NCBI GenBank assembly: GCA_046704665.1
Contig: JBJKRJ010000007.1
Location: forward strand, 3,024 to 67,023
DNA length: 64,000 bases
Direction of reading: 5' to 3'
DNA from: Thermoplasmata archaeon
GTDB taxonomy: Archaea > Thermoplasmatota > Thermoplasmata > Lutacidiplasmatales > UBA184
Shown: piece after piece, positions 40,563-50,360 of the stretch
Layout of the letters: the number at the start of each line of letters is the position of its first letter
How positions within the stretch are numbered: position 1 is the stretch's first letter
The notes under the pieces: model-generated
Database searches by the model: none
Seen by the model: the letters and a program-made list of their open reading frames with translations, nothing else
Told to the model about the DNA's origin: nothing
Program-made: the position numbers and the translations under genes

Positions 40563-40603
40563 CGCTCCCCCGGGGTCAAATACCGCCCGTCGTTCGCGCG
40601 AGC

Positions 40604-41215
40604 GTGCTGCTGGACCAGTACCGGGTCGGTCCGTATCTCAACTTCACCTACCTCGTGGCCGACGAGGAGGGCGGAGAGGGGGTCGTCATCGACCCGTCGT
40701 TCGGGATCGACCCGGTGCTCGAAGGGATCGACCGGCGCCATGTCAAGGTCCGCTTCATTCTGAACACCCACAGTCATCCCGACCACATCGCCGGCAACCA
40801 GGACGTCCGCGATCGCACCGGGGCCAAGGTCGTGGCGCACCGGGTCGCTCCGTTGCACCAGGACCTCTCGGTGGACGACGGGGACTCCTTCGACACCGGT
40901 CGCCTGAAGTTCCGGGTGATGCACACCCCCGGCCACACGAAGGACAGCGTGCTCTACCTCTTCGCGGGCCACGTCGCGACGGGCGACACCCTGTTTGTCG
41001 GGGAGTGCGGTCGCACCGACCTTCCCGGCGGTGATCCCTCGGAGATGTACGACAGTCTCCACCGACGCCTCCTTTCGCTCGACGACGCCCTGATCGTCCT
41101 GCCGGGGCACGACTACGGCTCGACCGCCACGTCGACCATCGGGCGGGAGCGGGCGGAGAACTACACCCTCGTCTCCCGGACCCGGGAGGAGTTCCTACGG
41201 TTCTTGGCCGAATGA
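40604..41215 (+). CDS. MBL-fold metallo-hydrolase (glyoxalase II-like)
   Basis: THSHPDH, HTPGHT, TGDTLF...GRTDLPGG, PGH. Confidence 0.92.
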   Translation: MLLDQYRVGPYLNFTYLVADEEGGEGVVIDPSFGIDPVLEGIDRRHVKVRFILNTHSHPDHIAGNQDVRDRTGAKVVAHRVAPLHQDLSVDDGDSFDTGRLKFRVMHTPGHTKDSVLYLFAGHVATGDTLFVGECGRTDLPGGDPSEMYDSLHRRLLSLDDALIVLPGHDYGSTATSTIGRERAENYTLVSRTREEFLRFLAE

Positions 41216-41226
41216 GGTGACCAGCG

Positions 41227-41790
41227 GTGCCTCTCCCTCCCCCCGAAGATCGTACGCTTCGGGCTCTCGGGGCCCGACGGCACTCGCCGGGGGTCCCGAG
41301 GAAGGACGCGCTCGTTCGCACCCTCCGCTCCCTCGGTCAGGAGTCGCCGGCCCTCGTGGCCGTCTTCGACGCACGGGCCGTGGGCGGAGAGCGTCACCTC
41401 CTGTCGGCGTGGGCCCATCTCGGTCGGGCACGGACCCGGGGGGAGACCCGCCTTCGCGATCGGGGTGCCGAGCTCGCGCTGTATCTCGCCGGGGACGACC
41501 AACTGCCCCGGGCCCTCGAGAAGGTCGGGGTCTCGGACGCGACCGAGCGGTTCGTCGTGGTCGCCGAGCGACCGCTCGACCCTCAGCAACTGCTCCCCCG
41601 GTTCGACCTCGAGGAGGACCCGAGCGCGTACCCGAGGGCGGTGGACGAGGAGACCCTCGACCGTCTCGGCATCACCGGTCCGGAGCGCGCGAGCGTCCCC
41701 CGGGAGCGCTGGGAGGCGCTCGTCCTCGAGCGTGTGGCGCTGCTCGAGCTCACGGCCCCCTCCGGCCGCACTTCACCGGAAAAGAAATAA
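41227..41790 (+). CDS. cgi121: KEOPS complex subunit Cgi121
   Basis: FDA..V.G.RHL..A, E..LY.AG..Q...AL...G, LVLERVALL. Confidence 0.82.
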   Translation: MPLPPPEDRTLRALGARRHSPGVPRKDALVRTLRSLGQESPALVAVFDARAVGGERHLLSAWAHLGRARTRGETRLRDRGAELALYLAGDDQLPRALEKVGVSDATERFVVVAERPLDPQQLLPRFDLEEDPSAYPRAVDEETLDRLGITGPERASVPRERWEALVLERVALLELTAPSGRTSPEKK

Positions 41791-41932: not shown

Positions 41933-41996
41933 TCCGCCGCGTCGCGGGCTCTTCCGGCGGAGGGCTTAATCGGTGGGACCCGGTCCCGGGGCCCGC

Positions 41997-42080
41997 GCTG
42001 AGGTAGCCTAGTCCGGTAAGGCGCCAGCCTTGAAAGCTGGTGGCGGTCTCGCCTCGGGAGTTCAAATCTCCCCCTCAGCG
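41997..42080 (+). tRNA. tRNA-Ser(TGA)
   Basis: Acceptor GCTGAGG/CCTCAGC; CCAGC-CTTGAAA-GCTGG; long variable arm; GGGAG-TTCAAAT-CTCCC; discriminator G. Confidence 0.95.
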
Positions 42081-42144
42081 CCCCCGGTGTCTCCGCCCCC
42101 TCCCGAGGCTGTTATAGGCCAAGGTCGGGTCGACCGACCGGACC

Positions 42145-44772
42145 ATGCACGACGCGGCCCCCCTGACTCCGCTCCTCGAACAGTACGAGGGGGTGAAGGC
42201 GCAGTACCCGGGCCACCTCGTGCTGTTCCGCGTGGGCGACTTCTACGAGACGTTCGGCGACGATGCGCGCCTGCTCTCGCGGGAGCTGGACGTCGTCCTC
42301 ACCGCCCGGGCCCCCGATACGCGGGGCGAGCGGACCCCGATGGCCGGCGTGCCGCATCACGCGGTCGAGAGCTATCTCGGCCGGCTCGTACGCAAGGGGT
42401 ACAAGGTCGCGCTCTGCGACCAGGTCGAGGACCCGCGGCTCGCCAAGGGGCTGGTGCGCCGCGAGGTCACCCGCGTGGTGACCCCCGGGACCGTGGTGGA
42501 GGACCGGATCCTCGGAGGCCCGGACCACAACTTCCTCGCGAGCGTCGTGCTCGAGCCGGACGGGTCCGGACGGTACGCCGCGGTCGACATCTCCACCGGT
42601 GAGTGGTTCCGCGGGGCCAGTGACGGACGAGGGCCGGAGGGCGTGATCTCGGCCCTCGCCCCCCTCGGGCCGCGGGAGCTCCTCTACACCGTTCGGGGCG
42701 GGGAGGGTCGCGAGCTCACCGCCGCGCTCCGGCGCGAGTTCCCGACCGCGCGTCTCGAGAGCGCGCCGGAACCGATGGGCCCGTCCGAGCTACCGGCGTC
42801 CTTCGTCCTGCCGTCGGCGTCCGCCGGCGTCTCCCTCGAGGCGGACCTCCGCCTCGCCGCCTACCTCCGGGCGACCCAGCCCCGCATCCTTCCGCATCTC
42901 TCCCTCGTCGATCGCGCGGCGGGAGATCTGCGGCTCGTGCTGGACTCGAAGACGCTCCGGCATCTCGAGATCACGCGGCCGATGAACCCCGACGACCCGA
43001 ACGGTGAGACCCTCCTCCGCACCTGGGACGAGACCGTGACGGCCTCCGGCCACCGGACGCTCGCCTTCTGGCTCGCGAACCCTCTCGCCGATCCCTCCGC
43101 GATCCGACGGCGACAGGACGAGGTGGAGCGTCTGGCGGATCGCGGCACCGCCCTGAGCGAGCTCCGCGCGACGCTCCGGGGGTTCGGCGACGTGGCCCGG
43201 ATCGCGGCGAGGGTGGCGGGCCGGAGGGTCCAGGCGACCGAGCTCGGAACACTGCGGGCGAGCCTGCGCGTGATCGGACGGGTCCGTGCGTTCCTCACCG
43301 AGGGCCCCGCGCCCGATTGTCTCGCCCGGCTCGAGGCCCTGCTGGACCATCCTCCCGAGCTCCTCGGGCTGCTGGAGACCGCCCTTCCCGACCCGGTCCC
43401 CCCGAGCGCGGACGAAGGAGAGCGGTTCCGCCGGGGCCATGCACCGGAGGTCGATGCATGGCGCGCGGCCGAGCGTGCGGCCGTCGAAGAGCTCGCCGCC
43501 CTGGAACGCGGCGAGCAGGAGGCGACCGGCATCAAGACGCTGAAGATCGGCTACAACCAGGTCTTTGGCTATTACCTCGAGGTCACGCGTCCGCACCTTT
43601 CCCGCGTACCGGAGCGCTTCCGCCGTCGCCAGACGGTCGCCCAGGCCGAGCGGTTCACCTCCGACCGCCTCGAGGAGGTCGAACGGAAGATCCTCGAGGC
43701 CCGGGACGGAGTTCGAGAGGCGGAGGCCCGACGGTGGGAGGAGCTCCTCGCGTCCCTCGAGGGGCACGTGCCGGCGCTTCAGCGGGTCGCGCGCGGCCTC
43801 GGGGAGGTCGACGCGCTCGCGACGTTCGCCCACCTCGCCCGGACCCGCGCGTACGTTCGCCCGCTCGTGGACGACTCGGCGGCGATCGTCATCCGGGACG
43901 GCCGCCACCCGGTGCTCGACCGCGTACTGAGCGAGGAGTTCGTCCCGAACGACGTCGAGCTCGACCTCGACGCACGCCGGCTCCTCGTGCTCACGGGGCC
44001 GAACATGTCGGGCAAGTCCACGTACATGCGGCAGATCGGCCTCCTCGTCGTCCTCGCTCAGGCCGGCTCGTTCGTACCGGCCCGCTTCGCCCGGATCGGG
44101 TGCGTGACCCAGCTGTTCACGCGGATGGGATTCACCGACGAGATCGGACGGGGGAAGTCGAGCTTCATGGTCGAGATGACCGAGGTCGCCGAGATCCTCC
44201 GCCGGGCCGATCCGCGCTCGCTCGTCCTCTTGGACGAGGTCGGACGTGGAACGAGCACGTTCGATGGTCTCGCGATCGCCTGGGCGACGCTCCGCTACCT
44301 TCACGACTCCGTTCGGGTCCGCTCGGTCCTCGCCACCCACTACCACCAGCTGACCGACCTCATCCGGGGGCTCTCGGCCGCCGAGAACGCACACTTCGCG
44401 GTCGCGGACCGCCCGGACGGGATCGTCTTCCTGCATCGGCTCGTGCCCGGTAGCACCGATCGTAGCTACGGGATCCATGTCGCCCGCCTCGCGGGCCTCC
44501 CGAAGGAGGTGCTCTCGGAAGCGGATCATCTCCTCGCCCGGCTGGAGCGCGACGGCGTGGGCATCTCCGTCAAGCGCACCGGCCGCTCGCGGTCTCCCCG
44601 ATACACGCAGGCCGTGCTCCTGCCGAGCGCCGAGGCCCCGATCGACCCGCTCCTCCGGGAGCTGCGCGCGCTCGAGGTCGATCGGATGACCCCCGAGGAG
44701 GCGGTCGCGAAGCTCAAAGAGCTCCGACGAAGGGCTGGCCCCCGCTCGGACCGGGAGGACCCCGGCGCGTGA
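42145..44772 (+). CDS. mutS: DNA mismatch repair protein MutS (MutS1)
   Basis: GDFYETF (F-x-E), MAGVP, VTRVVTPGT, GPNMSGKS, DEVGRGTST, ATHY, SYGIHVA. Confidence 0.96.
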   Translation: MHDAAPLTPLLEQYEGVKAQYPGHLVLFRVGDFYETFGDDARLLSRELDVVLTARAPDTRGERTPMAGVPHHAVESYLGRLVRKGYKVALCDQVEDPRLAKGLVRREVTRVVTPGTVVEDRILGGPDHNFLASVVLEPDGSGRYAAVDISTGEWFRGASDGRGPEGVISALAPLGPRELLYTVRGGEGRELTAALRREFPTARLESAPEPMGPSELPASFVLPSASAGVSLEADLRLAAYLRATQPRILPHLSLVDRAAGDLRLVLDSKTLRHLEITRPMNPDDPNGETLLRTWDETVTASGHRTLAFWLANPLADPSAIRRRQDEVERLADRGTALSELRATLRGFGDVARIAARVAGRRVQATELGTLRASLRVIGRVRAFLTEGPAPDCLARLEALLDHPPELLGLLETALPDPVPPSADEGERFRRGHAPEVDAWRAAERAAVEELAALERGEQEATGIKTLKIGYNQVFGYYLEVTRPHLSRVPERFRRRQTVAQAERFTSDRLEEVERKILEARDGVREAEARRWEELLASLEGHVPALQRVARGLGEVDALATFAHLARTRAYVRPLVDDSAAIVIRDGRHPVLDRVLSEEFVPNDVELDLDARRLLVLTGPNMSGKSTYMRQIGLLVVLAQAGSFVPARFARIGCVTQLFTRMGFTDEIGRGKSSFMVEMTEVAEILRRADPRSLVLLDEVGRGTSTFDGLAIAWATLRYLHDSVRVRSVLATHYHQLTDLIRGLSAAENAHFAVADRPDGIVFLHRLVPGSTDRSYGIHVARLAGLPKEVLSEADHLLARLERDGVGISVKRTGRSRSPRYTQAVLLPSAEAPIDPLLRELRALEVDRMTPEEAVAKLKELRRRAGPRSDREDPGA

Positions 44773-46553
44773 TGCCCCCGTCGGTGCCGGCGCGCGCTCC
44801 GATCCGTCGGCTCGCGCGGGAGACCGTCGAGCGGATCGCGGCGGGCGAGGTCGTGGAACGTCCCGCCTCGGTCGTCAAGGAGCTCCTGGAGAACGCGATC
44901 GACGCCGGAGCGCATGCGGTGACCGTCCGCATCACGAACGGGGGTCTTGACCGCATCGAGGTCGCCGACGACGGGGCGGGGATCGCTCCCGAGGAGCTCG
45001 AGCTCGCGGTCGAGCGCCACGCGACCTCGAAGCTCTCCCCGGAGGGACCGGTGGAGCGGATCGACTCGCTCGGCTTCCGCGGAGAGGCGCTGGCGGCGAT
45101 CGCGACCGTTTCCCGGCTCCGTCTCGTCTCCCGGCCTCCCGACCGAGAGGTCGCCGAGGGCCTCTCGGTGGTCGGCGGGGCTCCGGCGGGACGGTTCGCG
45201 GCGCCCCGTTCGCCGGGGACCACCGTCGAAGTGGAGGACCTGTTCTTCAACACGCCCGCCCGCCGCAAGTTCCTCAAGAGCCCGCCGTCCGAGCAGGTCG
45301 AGATCGTGCAGGCGGTCGAGCGGACGTACCTCGCCCGGCCGACGGTCACCGTACGGCTCGAGTCGGAGGGACGCGAGCTCGCGGTCTATCCGGCGAGCGC
45401 CGAGCTCACGGACGCCGCGGCGCTGGTTCTCGGTGTCGAGTTCCTTCGTGGTTCGTTCCCCGTGGCGGGGGAACTGCCCGGGGGCCGCGTCTTCGGCGCC
45501 CTGGGTCGGCCCCCGCTCTCCGCGGTGTCGTCCCGGAGCCTCTACCTCGCCATCAACGGCCGCCCCATCGTCTCCCGAACGCTGCAGCAGGCGGTGCGGG
45601 CCGCGTTCGGTGACTACCTTCCCCGCACCCGGTATCCGGTCGGGATCCTGCACCTCGAGCTGGTCCCGACCGGCCTGGACGTGAACGTCCACCCGACCAA
45701 ACGCGAGGTGCGCGTCGCCCAGGAACGCGAGGTCACCGAGGCATTGCGGATCCGGGTGCGGGAGTCGCTGATCGCCGCGCCGGCGATCTCGGAGCTCACC
45801 GCGGGAAGGTGGTCGGGCGTCGCTCGCCCCGGCCCCGGAACCGCGATCCCGTCTCCGTCCGCCGTCGCGGCGGCCGCCAAACCTCTGCCGCTGCCGCGCC
45901 TCGCCGATCGCGGCCAGCGTCGTCTCGACTCGCTTTCCCGTGAGGAGACGGACCGGTCGGCTCCGGGGAGGAAGGCTCCCCGGCTCGAGCTCATCGGGTG
46001 CATCCAGGCGCTGTACTGGGTCGGCGAGTCCGAGGAAGGATTGGTCCTGATCGACCAGCACGCGGCGAGCGAGCGCCTCCTCTACGATTCTCTCCTCCGT
46101 TACCAGGCGCTGGCCCGCCAGACCCTCGTCGAGGATGTCGTGGTGCGGCTCACCGGCGCCCAGCGCTCCGCCCTCGCGGCCCACTCGGCCGAGGTCGCCC
46201 GGGCCGGTTTCGAGGTCGACGCCTTCGGGCCGAACGAGTTCCGCGTACGCGCGCTCCCGTCGTTCCGGGGTCGGCGCGCCCGTCCCGAGACCCTGGGAGA
46301 GCTGCTGGACGAACTTGCGGGCGGGGGACGCCCCACGCTGCCGGACGGACTCCGCGAGCGGACGGCCGCCACGCTCGCCTGTCACGCGGCGATCCGCGCC
46401 GGCGACACCGTCTCGGTCGAAGAGTTCTCCCGGGTCCTCGACGCTCTCGGTGCCCTCCCCAATGCCCCCCCGAGCTGCCCGCACGGTCGCCCGATCCTCC
46501 TCGGGATCCCCCGTGCGCGCCTCGACCGTTGGTTCCTCCGGAGCGGAGCGTGA
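44769..46553 (+). CDS. mutL: DNA mismatch repair endonuclease MutL
   Basis: IAAGEVVERPASVVKELLENAIDA, GFRGEAL, DVNVHPTK, DQHAASER, ACH, CPHGRP. Confidence 0.96.
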   Translation: MMPPSVPARAPIRRLARETVERIAAGEVVERPASVVKELLENAIDAGAHAVTVRITNGGLDRIEVADDGAGIAPEELELAVERHATSKLSPEGPVERIDSLGFRGEALAAIATVSRLRLVSRPPDREVAEGLSVVGGAPAGRFAAPRSPGTTVEVEDLFFNTPARRKFLKSPPSEQVEIVQAVERTYLARPTVTVRLESEGRELAVYPASAELTDAAALVLGVEFLRGSFPVAGELPGGRVFGALGRPPLSAVSSRSLYLAINGRPIVSRTLQQAVRAAFGDYLPRTRYPVGILHLELVPTGLDVNVHPTKREVRVAQEREVTEALRIRVRESLIAAPAISELTAGRWSGVARPGPGTAIPSPSAVAAAAKPLPLPRLADRGQRRLDSLSREETDRSAPGRKAPRLELIGCIQALYWVGESEEGLVLIDQHAASERLLYDSLLRYQALARQTLVEDVVVRLTGAQRSALAAHSAEVARAGFEVDAFGPNEFRVRALPSFRGRRARPETLGELLDELAGGGRPTLPDGLRERTAATLACHAAIRAGDTVSVEEFSRVLDALGALPNAPPSCPHGRPILLGIPRARLDRWFLRSGA

Positions 46554-47110
46554 CCCCGAGTTCCGCCCGCCCTCGAGCGCTTCCGAGCGAAGCCGAGATG
46601 GTGCGCGCGGTGGCGCTCCATCTCGAATCTCGCGGGTATCGGGTCCGGGTCGATCCGGACGGGACCGACTACTTCGATCTCGTCGCGCGGAACGATACCG
46701 GGGTCGGGCTGGTCGAGGCCAAGGTCGCCGACGCACGGAAGGTCTGGGCGCAAGCGGTCCGCCGTCGGGGCTGGGGGACCTGGAGCGCGGTGGTGCTCGC
46801 GCGTCCGATCACGGCCGAGCGTCTCGCGGCGCGCACCGCGATGAGCCGTGCCTCCCGCATCGGTGTCTGGAGCCTCGACGATGGAAAGGTCCGAGTCCAC
46901 CGGCCGGCGCGCCCATGGGTCGCGCCCGACGAGCCGGACCCGTACGCCGAGCTTCGGGAGCGGTTCCTGCGCATCCTGGACGCCCTCGATGCCGGCACCC
47001 TGCCGATCGACGCGCGCTGGGAAGGGGTCCCTCGGGCCGTCCGGCGCGCATCGAAAGGACGCGGATTTTCGGAGTGGCGGCTCGACGAGCCTCCGGCCCG
47101 CCCCGATTAG
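46550..47110 (+). CDS. Predicted PD-(D/E)XK nuclease
   Basis: SEAEM...HLESRGYRV ... YFDLVA ... GLVEAK ... AQA; GTG overlaps the mutL stop (GTGA). Confidence 0.78.
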   Translation: MTPSSARPRALPSEAEMVRAVALHLESRGYRVRVDPDGTDYFDLVARNDTGVGLVEAKVADARKVWAQAVRRRGWGTWSAVVLARPITAERLAARTAMSRASRIGVWSLDDGKVRVHRPARPWVAPDEPDPYAELRERFLRILDALDAGTLPIDARWEGVPRAVRRASKGRGFSEWRLDEPPARPD

Positions 47111-48252
47111 GGGGGCCCGCCGATCGCCCGGTCGACCTCTTCCCAGAAGCGGCGGGGGTCGAAGCGCAGCGCGAACTCGCGGCCGGCGACCGCCATTTCG
47201 CGGCACGCCGCCGGGTCGGCCACGAGTTCGGCGAGGGTCGACGCGATGTCGCCCGTATCCTCGCTCGGGGTGAACCGGAGGGCTGCACCGGGGGCGACCG
47301 GGAGCTCGGCCGAGCCCGTCGCGATCGTGGCACAGCCGGCGCGTTGAGCGAAGATCACTCCGGGATCGAACCCTCGATGGTGGGGGGCGATGAGCGCGAC
47401 GTCCGCCGCCGCGAGGGCAATCGTGAGCGCTCCCCCGTCGCGCGCAGGAAGAGCGATGACCCCGGGCTCGCTCGGTGCGCTCGCCCCCGCGAGCACGAGC
47501 CGCACGCCGGGGAACAACGGTCGGATGCGGCGGAACGCCTCGCGTACGACCCCCGTCGCCGGGCCCTCGATCGCGTCCGGGGCGATCGGCGCGACGACCG
47601 TGGGGACGTCGGGCGGAATGCCGAGCCGACCTCGGGCCTCCGTGCGCGAGGGGGCCTCGGCGAGCGTGGGCACCGGGGAGGTCGTGAGCCGCAGTCGCGT
47701 CCGGGGGAGGCCGTACTCCGTGACGAGCGCGTCGGCGATCCCCGGCGCATCGCAGAAGACGACTTCGGGCTCGAGCAGGGCGGCGCGCTCGAGCCGGCGA
47801 ACGGCGCGCCGGTCCCGCCAGAGACCGATCCGGTCGACGAAGCCCCCGGTGGGGATACCCCCTTGCGCATGGTCGAACTCCCGGATCCCGATCGAACGGG
47901 CGAACGAGATGAGGTGCGGTGCCGCCCCGCGTCGCCCGCCGATCCCGAGCGGTCCGATCCCGGCGGGATCGCGGAGGACGAGGTCGGCCTCCGGTCGGAT
48001 CCGGCGGCCGGCCGCGCTCGCGAAGTCGGCGTCCTCGAGCGTGGTTCCCGGTCGACGCAAGGGGAACGACACGCCCTCCGCCAGGACGCCGTCCGGCGGT
48101 GGCCCGCCGGTCGCTCCCTGGGGATAGAGCACCCGCACCCGATCGCCTCGTTCCGCGGCCGCTCGGGCGACCGACCAGACCGCCGCGAGGGGGGAGTACG
48201 GGTCGGTCGGAGCGGGAGCGACGGCGACCAGGTCCACGGTCCGGAACGCCAT
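47107..48252 (-). CDS. GT-B fold glycosyltransferase family 4-like (divergent)
   Basis: RG..V.V, RRLERAAL, EAR.RLG.P, LVLAG, AADV, F.P.D...IA..L..L; lacks the usual EX7E. Confidence 0.75.
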   Translation of the reverse strand: MAFRTVDLVAVAPAPTDPYSPLAAVWSVARAAAERGDRVRVLYPQGATGGPPPDGVLAEGVSFPLRRPGTTLEDADFASAAGRRIRPEADLVLRDPAGIGPLGIGGRRGAAPHLISFARSIGIREFDHAQGGIPTGGFVDRIGLWRDRRAVRRLERAALLEPEVVFCDAPGIADALVTEYGLPRTRLRLTTSPVPTLAEAPSRTEARGRLGIPPDVPTVVAPIAPDAIEGPATGVVREAFRRIRPLFPGVRLVLAGASAPSEPGVIALPARDGGALTIALAAADVALIAPHHRGFDPGVIFAQRAGCATIATGSAELPVAPGAALRFTPSEDTGDIASTLAELVADPAACREMAVAGREFALRFDPRRFWEEVDRAIGGPP

Positions 48253-48455
48253 CGGGGCGCGCCCACCGGGACCGAAGCGAAAAAGACTTCCGATGGACGA
48301 CCCGCTACGAAGAGAGGCCGGGTTTCCCCGCGTACGGGCCATGCGGGAGGGCGATCGGCGCGGCCGCGCCTCCGTTCAGAGAGCGTCGGGGCCTCCCCCG
48401 GGGACCGACGGGAACCGGACGTCCGCCTTCCGGCGCCGGCCGCGCGTCGGTCGCG

Positions 48456-50360
48456 TCAGAGCACCCGGATCGCCTCGAGGTTGAAGGGGGCTCGGGACTC
48501 GAGGTTGAACCTCTTGTGGAGGCTCGAAGCGAGGTCGAGGGTCTTCGACTCCTCCCCATGGTTCAGGATGACCCGCTGCGGTCTCGGGTCGAGCGATGCG
48601 ACGAAGTTCATCAGCTGGACACGATCGGAGTGCCCGGAGAACCCCTCGATCGTTGCGATCTCGAGCTTCACCGGGACCGACGCCTGTCGTGACCCGTCGA
48701 GGAACGTCGCTTCGCTCAGACCGCGCTGGAGGCGTTTGCCGAACGTTCCCTCGGCCTGGTAGCCGACGAACAGGAGGCCACTGTTCTCCTCGGGCGCCCA
48801 GGATCGGAAGTACTCCATCACGGGCCCTCCGCTCATCATGCCCGAGGTCGCGAGGACGATGCAGGGCTCCTTCGAATCGACGATCGAGGAACGCATCTGG
48901 GAGGAATCGACGCGCCGGAAGATGTCGGACAGGAACGGATTGTCTCCCTGCTGGAAGATCTGGGTCCTCAGCTGGCTGTTCAGGAACTCGGGATAGGCCG
49001 TGTGGATCGCGGTCGCCTCGAAGATCATCCCGTCGAGGTAGACCGGGACGCGCGGGATCTTCCCTTCGCGCATCTTCTCTTCGAGGACGAGCATCACCTC
49101 CTGCGACCGGCCCACGGCGAAGACCGGGACGATGAGCTTGCCGCCGCGGGCGAGGATCTTCGTCGCGAGCGCCGCGAACTGGTCGGTCGCCTGCTGGCGG
49201 CTCGGCTGGAGGTCGCGATAGCCCCCGTACGTCGATTCCAGCACGAGGGTCTCGAGCCGGGGGAACCGGTTGGTGGCGGGATTGAACAGCCAGCTCCGCT
49301 CGAACTTGATGTCCCCGGAGTAGGCGAGGTTGTGATCGCCCTCCCCGAGGTGGAAGTGACAGATCGAGGATCCGAGGATGTGACCGGCGTTGTGCATGGT
49401 CAGGCGGATGTCCGGGGCGATGTCGGTCGTCTCGCCCCAGCGGAGCGGGATCGTCCGCGTGACGAGCTCGCGGACGTGCGAGGAGTCGTAGAGGCCGCGC
49501 CGCGCCTCCTGGTTGACGACCTTGATCGCATCGAGGAGCATGAGGGTCATCATGTCGCGGGTCGGGGCGGTCGCATAGATGGGCCCCTTGTACCCGTACT
49601 TCAGGAGGACCGGCACAAGCCCGCAGTGATCGAGGTGGGCGTGCGTGACCACGACCGCATCGAGCGAGTCGAGGGGGAGGAGCTCGGGGGCGTTGAAGAA
49701 CGGCGTGCGGTCGGAACCCGGGTCGATGCCGCAGTCGATGAGGACCTTCGAGTTCTGGGTCGTGAGGAGGTGCGCGCTCCGGCCGACCTCGCGGTAGCCG
49801 CCGAGGGCCGTCGTGCGGGCCCAGAGCTTCTCGGGCAGCGGGTCGCGGGCGATGCGGATCCCGACCTTCTTCAGGAACGATCGGCGGTCGTCGAAGGAGT
49901 TGCGAAGGTGGATGCGGACCTCCTCCACGGTCTTCGACGGGATCGGGGGCGTCCGGACGACCGTCGGGACCCAGCCGATGCGACGCTTGAGGTCGTTGAG
50001 GACCGACCCGCCGCGCCCGATGGCGGCGCCCGGGTTCGCCGCCTCGATCGTGACCTCACCGGTCTCGGGCTCGAAGAAGAGCTGGTTGATCTCGGCCTCG
50101 ACCGGGATCACCTCGCGGATCGACTTCTCGGCCTCCTTCGGGTCGATCAGCGTGGCGGGATCGGAGCGGACGACGACCCGTCGATGGAGGCGTTGCGCGA
50201 CCTGGCGGAGGTAGTCCCCCCCCGAGAGAAAGGCGTCAAGCTGCTTCGTATAGAGGACGACGTGCGGGCCCTCGAGCTCGATGTCGGTGACCTCGATCGT
50301 CTCCGGGAGGACCTCGGTGAGTGCCTGCCGGACCTGTTCTATGAGCGAGTCGAAACTCAT
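48456..50360 (-). CDS. fttA: beta-CASP ribonuclease aCPSF1 (transcription termination factor FttA)
   Basis: N-terminal KH domains, GGYREVGRS, THAHLDH, AGHILGS, ESTYG, GFSGHSD, HGE. Confidence 0.95.
   Translation of the reverse strand: MSFDSLIEQVRQALTEVLPETIEVTDIELEGPHVVLYTKQLDAFLSGGDYLRQVAQRLHRRVVVRSDPATLIDPKEAEKSIREVIPVEAEINQLFFEPETGEVTIEAANPGAAIGRGGSVLNDLKRRIGWVPTVVRTPPIPSKTVEEVRIHLRNSFDDRRSFLKKVGIRIARDPLPEKLWARTTALGGYREVGRSAHLLTTQNSKVLIDCGIDPGSDRTPFFNAPELLPLDSLDAVVVTHAHLDHCGLVPVLLKYGYKGPIYATAPTRDMMTLMLLDAIKVVNQEARRGLYDSSHVRELVTRTIPLRWGETTDIAPDIRLTMHNAGHILGSSICHFHLGEGDHNLAYSGDIKFERSWLFNPATNRFPRLETLVLESTYGGYRDLQPSRQQATDQFAALATKILARGGKLIVPVFAVGRSQEVMLVLEEKMREGKIPRVPVYLDGMIFEATAIHTAYPEFLNSQLRTQIFQQGDNPFLSDIFRRVDSSQMRSSIVDSKEPCIVLATSGMMSGGPVMEYFRSWAPEENSGLLFVGYQAEGTFGKRLQRGLSEATFLDGSRQASVPVKLEIATIEGFSGHSDRVQLMNFVASLDPRPQRVILNHGEESKTLDLASSLHKRFNLESRAPFNLEAIRVL

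Follow-up and report, generated by a model that had tools for sequence, protein, structure and literature searches.

In the 64,000-nt stretch of Thermoplasmata archaeon DNA analysed here (the window, whose numbering is used for all positions), the mismatch repair genes mutS and mutL are followed by a third gene, open reading frame 3 (ORF3). On its predicted structure, the 186-residue ORF3 protein is a member of the PD-(D/E)XK nuclease superfamily with an intact active site, outside all the named families tested. The three genes lie on the same strand and are joined at both junctions by GTGA stop/start overlaps (Table 1), as an earlier note on this DNA had already described. We tentatively propose that ORF3 serves the MutSL pathway as an accessory nuclease peculiar to its clade. 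An independent nuclease that shares the mutSL transcript ranks just behind and is nearly as likely.

ORF3, its start codon and its predicted fold

Long spurious open reading frames are common in DNA of about 70% G+C, so the length of ORF3 proves nothing by itself. It was accepted as a gene on the basis of conservation, a protein database search having returned 249 homologues at E ≤ 0.01. Among the 120 homologues listed, most are 178-194 residues long and 57-83% identical. Those source labels that name an organism all read Thermoplasmata archaeon, and two homologues carry the JGI label 'Holliday junction resolvase'. Two alignments were used in particular, A1 with 30 database homologues and A3 with 40 homologues from genome loci. 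Residues E14, D43, E56, K58 and Q68 are invariant in both, and the invariant C-terminal positions include W157, R171 and E180. The first five are the columns of the restriction-endonuclease-like catalytic layout that the earlier note had recognised from its motifs. ORF3 diverges at about the rate of MutL, with mean distances of 0.54 and 0.50, respectively.

As judged by the alignments, the true start of ORF3 is very likely the GTG at 46550. The sole nearby ATG, at 46598 (residue 17), falls after the invariant E14, and I, V or L occupies this position in most homologues. A stored version of the protein, P0002 (170 residues), begins at this ATG and would be devoid of the catalytic E14; its start was probably mis-annotated in the source record.

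An AlphaFold2 model of ORF3 built on A1 reached a mean predicted local distance difference test (pLDDT) score of 79.2 and a predicted template modelling score of 0.76. Its core follows the order alpha-beta-beta-beta-alpha-beta (helix 14-27, strands 31-34, 44-48 and 51-58, helix 62-75, strand 78-83). The first helix holds E14, the beta strands D43, E56 and K58, and the second helix Q68. Thus, the core fold is found together with the features that define the superfamily, namely E on alpha1, D at the start of beta2 and ExK on beta3. After the core, the model continues with one more strand and helix, the beta hairpin formed by residues 105-118 and another two to three helices, and it ends in a tail of low confidence. 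Helices 133-148 and 157-167 belong to the extension, which ends in the conserved tail RRASGGRGFxEWRLDE, of low pLDDT in the monomer model.

Foldseek comparison of this model with the PDB supports the PD-(D/E)XK fold, a check that the earlier note had proposed. The best match is 3dnx/SPO1766 (E 1.8e-4, template modelling (TM) scores 0.44/0.54, 156 columns). Further matches include several Hjc structures, YaeQ, UPF0102 (3fov), AF1548, PaqCI, NucS/EndoMS and tRNA-splicing endonucleases. Among the viral models of BFVD, 17 matched ORF3 with an E value of 1e-3 or less; Mrr, VRR-NUC and phage 'MmcB-like DNA repair' proteins are represented in this set. At the sequence level, ORF3 gave no above-threshold match to the Pfam, NCBIfam, PHROG or PADLOC models and no sequence match in the PDB. 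The sub-threshold Pfam signals among 30 members of the family (AHJR-like 5, Hjc 5, PDDEXK_5 3, Mrr_cat 2, UPF0102 1) agree with the result of the fold comparison. Taken together, residues and model suggest that ORF3 would be a catalytically competent DNA nuclease, similar in shape to Hjc, UPF0102 and MmcB.

ORF3 has the same order of the PD-(D/E)XK core as Hjc (PF01870) and the AHJR-like family (PF18743). The Hjc structures 4tkd, 2eo0, 1gef and 2wj0 are among its best PDB fold matches, with low TM scores of 0.26-0.31 of the query. The spacing E14...D43...E56-x-K58 also resembles what we take to be the arrangement of the Hjc site. ORF3 differs from Hjc by its additional beta hairpin and by a conserved extension, roughly 65 residues long, at its C terminus. 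The ORF3 of the window gave no match to PF01870 at E ≤ 1, and among the 30 members the best reached E 0.0047 and none the Pfam cut-off. Since a separate canonical Hjc is encoded elsewhere in the genome (C57, 26 bits), we rejected ORF3 as the Hjc of this lineage. An hhalign comparison of A3 with the genome's own Hjc detected no relationship, an uninformative result given that the Hjc side was a single sequence.

Sequence identity of ORF3 to SPO1766 and the MmcB-like matches is 13-21%. Of the BFVD models, that of a Dickeya phage 'MmcB-like' protein superposes best (TM 0.55/0.69, root mean square deviation 4.5). The likeness is confined to the fold: no match to MmcB-like PF06319 or to DUF2161 PF09929 was found in the genome even at E ≤ 10. 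A review regards MmcB, which has no demonstrated enzymatic activity, as a UvrA-independent nuclease for the repair of mitomycin C damage, and its family as nearly all alphaproteobacterial (PMC13705206).

Two other families also appeared in the comparisons with the PDB. UPF0102/YraN (3fov) was the sole near-significant PDB profile match (E 0.0026), which covers residues 19-70 with the D...ExK strands. This match is sub-threshold and extends over about 50 residues only; one of the 30 members matches PF02021, at E 0.069. We know of no link between YraN and MutSL. NucS/EndoMS is the archaeal and actinobacterial mismatch endonuclease, and its PD-(D/E)XK catalytic domain is found among the ORF3 fold matches (2vld, 5gke). 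NucS_C (PF01939) has no match in the genome. ORF3 lacks the N-terminal DNA-binding domain of NucS, its own order being an N-terminal nuclease and a C-terminal extension.

Linkage to mutS and mutL and distribution in the Thermoplasmata

The MutS-MutL pair of the window is canonical. MutS is a full-length MutS1 (NCBIfam NF003810, 848.8 bits for a cut-off of 480; Pfam MutS_I, III, IV and V) and carries GDFYE, in line with the F-x-E mismatch motif reported in the earlier note. MutL is also full (TIGR00585, 457.8 bits for a cut-off of 180; MutL_C, 97 bits), with a GHKL ATPase, MutL_C and the endonuclease motifs DQHAASERLLYD, ACHAAIR and CPHGRP.

A scan of one genome per GTDB species identified 101 relatives, the best 80 loci of which were analysed. 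Nearly all of these 80 are from records of metagenome-assembled genomes titled Thermoplasmata archaeon. The earlier note had asked whether homologues are consistently placed after mutL, and this is what full-length homologues display: mutL is directly upstream of ORF3 in all 79 loci that reach that far, the 80th (L076) beginning inside ORF3. mutS lies upstream in 70 of the 80; in the remaining 10, the contig begins inside mutL or ORF3. mutL and ORF3 overlap by 4 bp (NTGA) in 73/79 loci; in the others they are 2-16 nt apart, except for one locus whose overlap measures 25 nt and one with a problem in the reading frame. A 4-bp overlap also joins mutS and mutL in 62/65 loci, after removal of four loci with MutL frame changes and of those without a MutS end. 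An NTGA start/stop overlap is expected in about three quarters of cases given the frame offset. The evidence is the conserved zero-distance adjacency and not the GTG itself.

The loci share a common order of genes: an MBL-fold gene, a CGI-121-like gene, mutS, mutL, ORF3, a glycosyltransferase gene and CPSF1. The flanks of this arrangement have been rearranged several times: about 10 loci lack the glycosyltransferase gene or have it elsewhere, and about 13 carry some 1.1 kb of inserted DNA between the CGI-121-like gene and mutS. Despite these changes, the mutS-mutL-ORF3 triad is never interrupted. MutL and ORF3 were found apart in four genomes (G035, G212, G218 and G230), where both genes are at contig ends, which corresponds to assembly breaks.

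We also observed that MutL of the ORF3-bearing clade ends in WFLR-(S/T/A/R/P)-(G/S/P)-x (46541-46549 in the window). Compared with MutL of genus g2 or of the sister families of the order, which ends in WFHR or MFLR, it has three extra residues, and these contain the overlap with the ORF3 start. The idea that the three residues (R-S/T-G) encode a ribosome-binding site for ORF3 was considered and dropped: GGAG or GAGG occurs at -16 to -3 in 33 of 74 starts, a count without a background rate. Four loci (L019, L023, L050 and L069) show a frame change within mutL, perhaps due to an assembly error or a pseudogene.

Within the class, the ORF3 profile matches 35 of 301 genomes. ORF3 is present in 31 of the 37 genomes of the window's family (26/28 in genus g1, 3/3 in g3, 1/1 in g4, 1/2 in g5 and 0/3 in g2). 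These tallies include three unpublished genomes (G098, G212 and G296), all of g1 and with both genes; g1 amounts to 23/25 without them. As for the six family members without ORF3, the contig of G065 ends inside mutL, G082 and G272 are also without a real MutL match, and the other three constitute genus g2. In the loci of two g2 genomes, the gene after mutS-mutL is convergent and was read as that of a cysteinyl-tRNA synthetase. The neighbour after mutL in the two remaining families of the order resembles a transporter or a regulator gene. These three gene names were read from translations and not from family searches.

Possible roles of ORF3

Relatives of ORF3 extend beyond the mutL-linked clade. 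A profile search of 1.84 billion representative proteins returned 133 at E ≤ 1e-3, and the 23 at E ≤ 1e-30 are the ORF3 family itself. The remaining relatives, of about 130-290 residues, match ORF3 residues 10-120 approximately, and no Pfam domain was detected in the 10 that were scanned. Eleven of them keep E, D, ExK and QA, so that the five catalytic-site residues of ORF3 are invariant in this distant set too. A profile of these 11 aligned with ORF3 over columns 8-157 (hhalign, 99.8% probability, E 3.8e-30). Relatives are present in 49 of 401 genomes of the phylum. Those whose context was examined are 131-176 residues long, without the C-terminal extension and tail of ORF3.

Several of these relatives are next to genes of DNA replication and repair. 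In 5/16 genome loci, all from one family, the order is a Rad51-like ATPase gene, a small ORF, a family-B DNA polymerase gene and the nuclease overlapping the polymerase stop; a SRAP gene then follows the nuclease in two of the five. A polymerase gene is directly upstream of the nuclease in 7/7 metagenome loci, obtained with the divergent ORF3-family protein P0145 as query, with SRAP downstream in five. In 3/16 loci the nuclease relative is directly 3′ of an RNase_H_2-type exonuclease gene. The polymerase cluster is conserved in low-G+C Thermoplasmatota (L117:3089-7541, L118, L126-L128; metagenome loci L134-L140). It comprises the Rad51-like ATPase, an ORF of about 85 residues, PolB of about 750 residues, a nuclease of about 145 residues and SRAP, an abasic-site peptidase.

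With these observations, we tentatively favour the view that ORF3 is an accessory nuclease of the MutSL pathway specific to this clade, because its coupling to mutL is never broken and because its relatives are coupled likewise to other DNA machines. In such a scenario, the ancestor of one Thermoplasmata family would have added ORF3 to the mutS-mutL operon as its last, translationally coupled gene, so that the protein would be synthesised in step with MutL. The clade-specific C-terminal extension and tail would recruit ORF3 to MutSL-marked DNA, where it would add a second cut beyond MutL nicking, in the form of flap, branch or excision-type cleavage. We infer that ORF3 may contact MutL, MutS or PCNA and may act on a substrate of this kind.

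A number of results weigh against such an accessory role. First, the ORF3 loci form one syntenic clade, with MutS 61-74% identical, and shared ancestry therefore accounts for much of the linkage. Second, rate covariation was measured in the 24 loci that hold all seven neighbouring proteins. MutS and MutL, the positive control, gave a partial correlation of 0.64, compared with 0.03 for ORF3-MutL, 0.07 for ORF3-MutS and 0.52 for ORF3-glycosyltransferase; the evidence is weak, given that the pairs lack independence and that proteins which evolve fast correlate mutually. Third, no fused MutL-ORF3 or other fusion was found among the longer proteins at E ≤ 0.001, which is also weak evidence. Fourth, neither MutS nor MutL lies within about 6 kb of the relatives in any of the 16 genome loci, nor on any of the seven metagenome loci, and two relatives are found instead in the order SocA/Panacea, PIN, nuclease (L125, one of the 16, and L091, from the class scan). 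Fifth, ORF3 gave only three weak, core-only matches outside the window's family in the 301 genomes of the class, while MutL is above cut-off in 158 of them. This distribution implies that MutSL works without ORF3 in most lineages and that ORF3 is a lineage-specific addition to a widespread operon. The prediction of a complex of ORF3 with MutL 1-340 or MutL 405-594 (alignments A2 and A3) scored 0.00 in both runs; these were made without controls and are evidence neither way.

Many of the same results would be expected if ORF3 acted on its own in repair or recombination, as a nuclease comparable to Hjc, UPF0102 or MmcB. Such an enzyme would cut branched DNA, crosslinks or lesions, and co-expression with mutSL would be convenient, but neither MutS nor MutL would be coupled to it physically or mechanistically. 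The missing covariation with two proteins that covary with each other, and the core relatives found between PolB and SRAP, downstream of an exonuclease gene or by themselves, all agree with this explanation. So do the intact MutL endonuclease, the narrow range of ORF3 among MutSL lineages, for which its absence is the rule, and the nearest folds (Hjc, SPO1766 and phage MmcB-like proteins), which are not those of MutL-dependent nucleases. In contrast, an independent nuclease does not readily explain why the zero-distance coupling to mutL is unbroken in all 79 loci that extend upstream of ORF3 while the flanks change. Nor does it explain why the C-terminal extension and invariant tail are confined to the mutL-linked clade, which suggests a clade-specific partner. 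A canonical Hjc is, moreover, already present in the genome. We thus keep the accessory role in MutSL as the first choice.

The earlier note had gone further and proposed that ORF3 may be an enzyme of nicking or strand discrimination activated by MutL, as a functional analogue of MutH or Vsr. On this view it would nick a single strand and thereby allow strand discrimination or incision near the mismatch. MutH and Vsr are MutL-stimulated PD-(D/E)XK nickases of enterobacteria, with which ORF3 shares the fold superfamily and the genetic association with MutL, here by translational coupling. Beyond this superfamily-level likeness, ORF3 has no sequence match to MutH (PF02976) or Vsr (PF03852) in Pfam or NCBIfam, and neither is among its 50 best PDB fold matches. 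E. coli MutL is not endonuclease-type, unlike MutL here, whose retained DQHAxxExxxx[E/D], ACH and CPHGRP motifs indicate that the clade has its own nickase. No match to Dam (PF02086) or Dcm (PF00145) was found in the genome, which is 93.85% complete, although N6/N4 methylases are present. Together with the occurrence of ORF3 in one family only, the lack of rate covariation with MutL and the other contexts of the core-only relatives, these results make a MutH/Vsr analogue improbable, and this part of the earlier proposal is not upheld.

The earlier note had also pointed out, correctly, that MutL of the window keeps its endonuclease motifs while the last Glu of the DQHA motif is Asp. The MutL motifs DQHAxxExxxx(E/D/A), ACH and CPHGRP are kept in 75/75 readable ORF3-bearing loci (5 of the 80 loci have no readable motif, and the ACH pattern is unmatched in L039). 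In these 75 loci the first motif ends in E 62 times, in D 11 times and in A twice. The Asp variant is thus a minority within the clade, with no clade-wide degeneration. We considered whether the E-to-D change might mark a degenerate MutL compensated by ORF3 and rejected it on these counts, the other motifs being intact. Since the motifs are intact in ORF3-bearing loci, ORF3 does not replace a dead MutL endonuclease.

A last explanation is that ORF3 is a domesticated or selfish nuclease, of viral or defence-island origin, that landed behind mutL and has no role in repair. Among distant relatives, P0168 (1.2e-26) and P0173 (4.3e-29) match PHROG 12193, a family of phage proteins whose function is unknown, many structural matches are phage proteins, and two relatives lie beside PIN and SocA/Panacea genes. 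ORF3 itself, however, has no PHROG or PADLOC match and no adjoining partner methylase or immunity gene. It is located inside a housekeeping operon and has been stably inherited in four genera or more without the loss of any catalytic residue and with a divergence similar to that of MutL, so that we give this origin little credence. In the two loci with PIN and SocA/Panacea (L091:2308-5016 and L125:5657-8334), a SocA/Panacea-like gene, a PIN gene, the nuclease and a gene for a 425-residue protein without Pfam domain follow one another, a four-gene set that looks like a toxin-antitoxin or defence cassette.

Operon boundaries and significance

The features of the locus are collected in Table 1. 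With tRNA-Ser just upstream and the convergent GT4 gene ending on the ORF3 stop, mutS-mutL-ORF3 forms a compact unit.

Table 1. Features of the mutS-mutL-ORF3 locus in the numbering of the window
Feature	Position	Strand	Basis or remark
tRNA-Ser (UGA)	41996..42083	+	ARAGORN; left edge of operon, 62 nt 5′ of mutS
mutS (MutS1, 875 aa, GDFYE mismatch motif)	42145..44772	+	NF003810; Pfam MutS_I, III, IV, V
GTGA overlap, mutL start / mutS stop	44769..44772	+	sequence; same 4-bp overlap in 62/65 related loci
mutL (594 aa; DQHAASERLLYD, ACHAAIR, CPHGRP)	44769..46553	+	TIGR00585, MutL_C
GTGA overlap, ORF3 start / mutL stop	46550..46553	+	4-bp NTGA overlap in 73/79 related loci
ORF3, 186-aa predicted PD-(D/E)XK nuclease of an unnamed family, last operon gene	46550..47110	+	conservation, AlphaFold2, Foldseek
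ORF3 nuclease core, residues 13-118	46586..46903	+	AlphaFold2 secondary structure, invariant columns, hhalign
ORF3 clade-specific C-terminal extension, residues 119-186	46904..47107	+	alignments, AlphaFold2; absent from 131-176-aa relatives
GT4 glycosyltransferase gene, convergent; stop overlaps ORF3 stop	47107..48342	-	right edge of operon

An operon promoter must fit in the gap between tRNA-Ser and mutS, unless mutS is transcribed by read-through from the tRNA. Further upstream are a CGI-121 (KEOPS subunit)-like gene (41227-41790), a weak assignment, and an MBL-fold hydrolase gene (40580-41215), named from its translation alone; both are kept upstream of mutS in most related loci. On the other side, an archaeal CPSF1-type beta-CASP/KH ribonuclease gene (48456-50360, minus strand), also named from translation alone, is the most conserved of the neighbourhood, with 86-94% identity over the related loci.

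According to excerpts of a review of the field, Archaea apparently have no MutH, the MutL of Methanosaeta nicks DNA, and mutation rates do not rise when mutS/mutL are deleted in haloarchaea (PMC7690668). In the portions available of the publication that introduced Lutacidiplasmatales, the order to which locus L078 belongs, the only statement on mutLS is that it is present (PMC9287336). Within the full-text searches made, nothing was found on an archaeal mutSL operon with a nuclease as third gene, an outcome that speaks for these searches alone.

Strand choice and processing in archaea with bacterial-type MutS-MutL are, to our knowledge, poorly understood. A more ambitious reading, which we regard as doubtful, joins two ideas: the extension and tail would dock the Hjc-like ORF3 on MutL, MutS or PCNA to form a three-component archaeal mismatch repair system, and the unnamed family would be a portable accessory nuclease. 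If the docking were true, MutSL would direct a second, structure-specific cut, for instance on mismatched recombination intermediates, as a prokaryotic counterpart of resolution of the MutL-gamma type, or a MutH-like strand incision. If the family were portable, Thermoplasmatota lineages would have coupled the nuclease to MutL in one case and to a family-B polymerase and SRAP in another. If co-expression alone is involved, the locus would show that a tight and conserved overlap with mutL is by itself no proof of a MutH-like partner. ORF3 defines a PD-(D/E)XK family without a model in Pfam, NCBIfam, PHROGs or PADLOC. As a mutL-coupled nuclease gene across one family of abundant, uncultured soil archaea, it offers a concrete candidate for a new accessory step in their mismatch repair.

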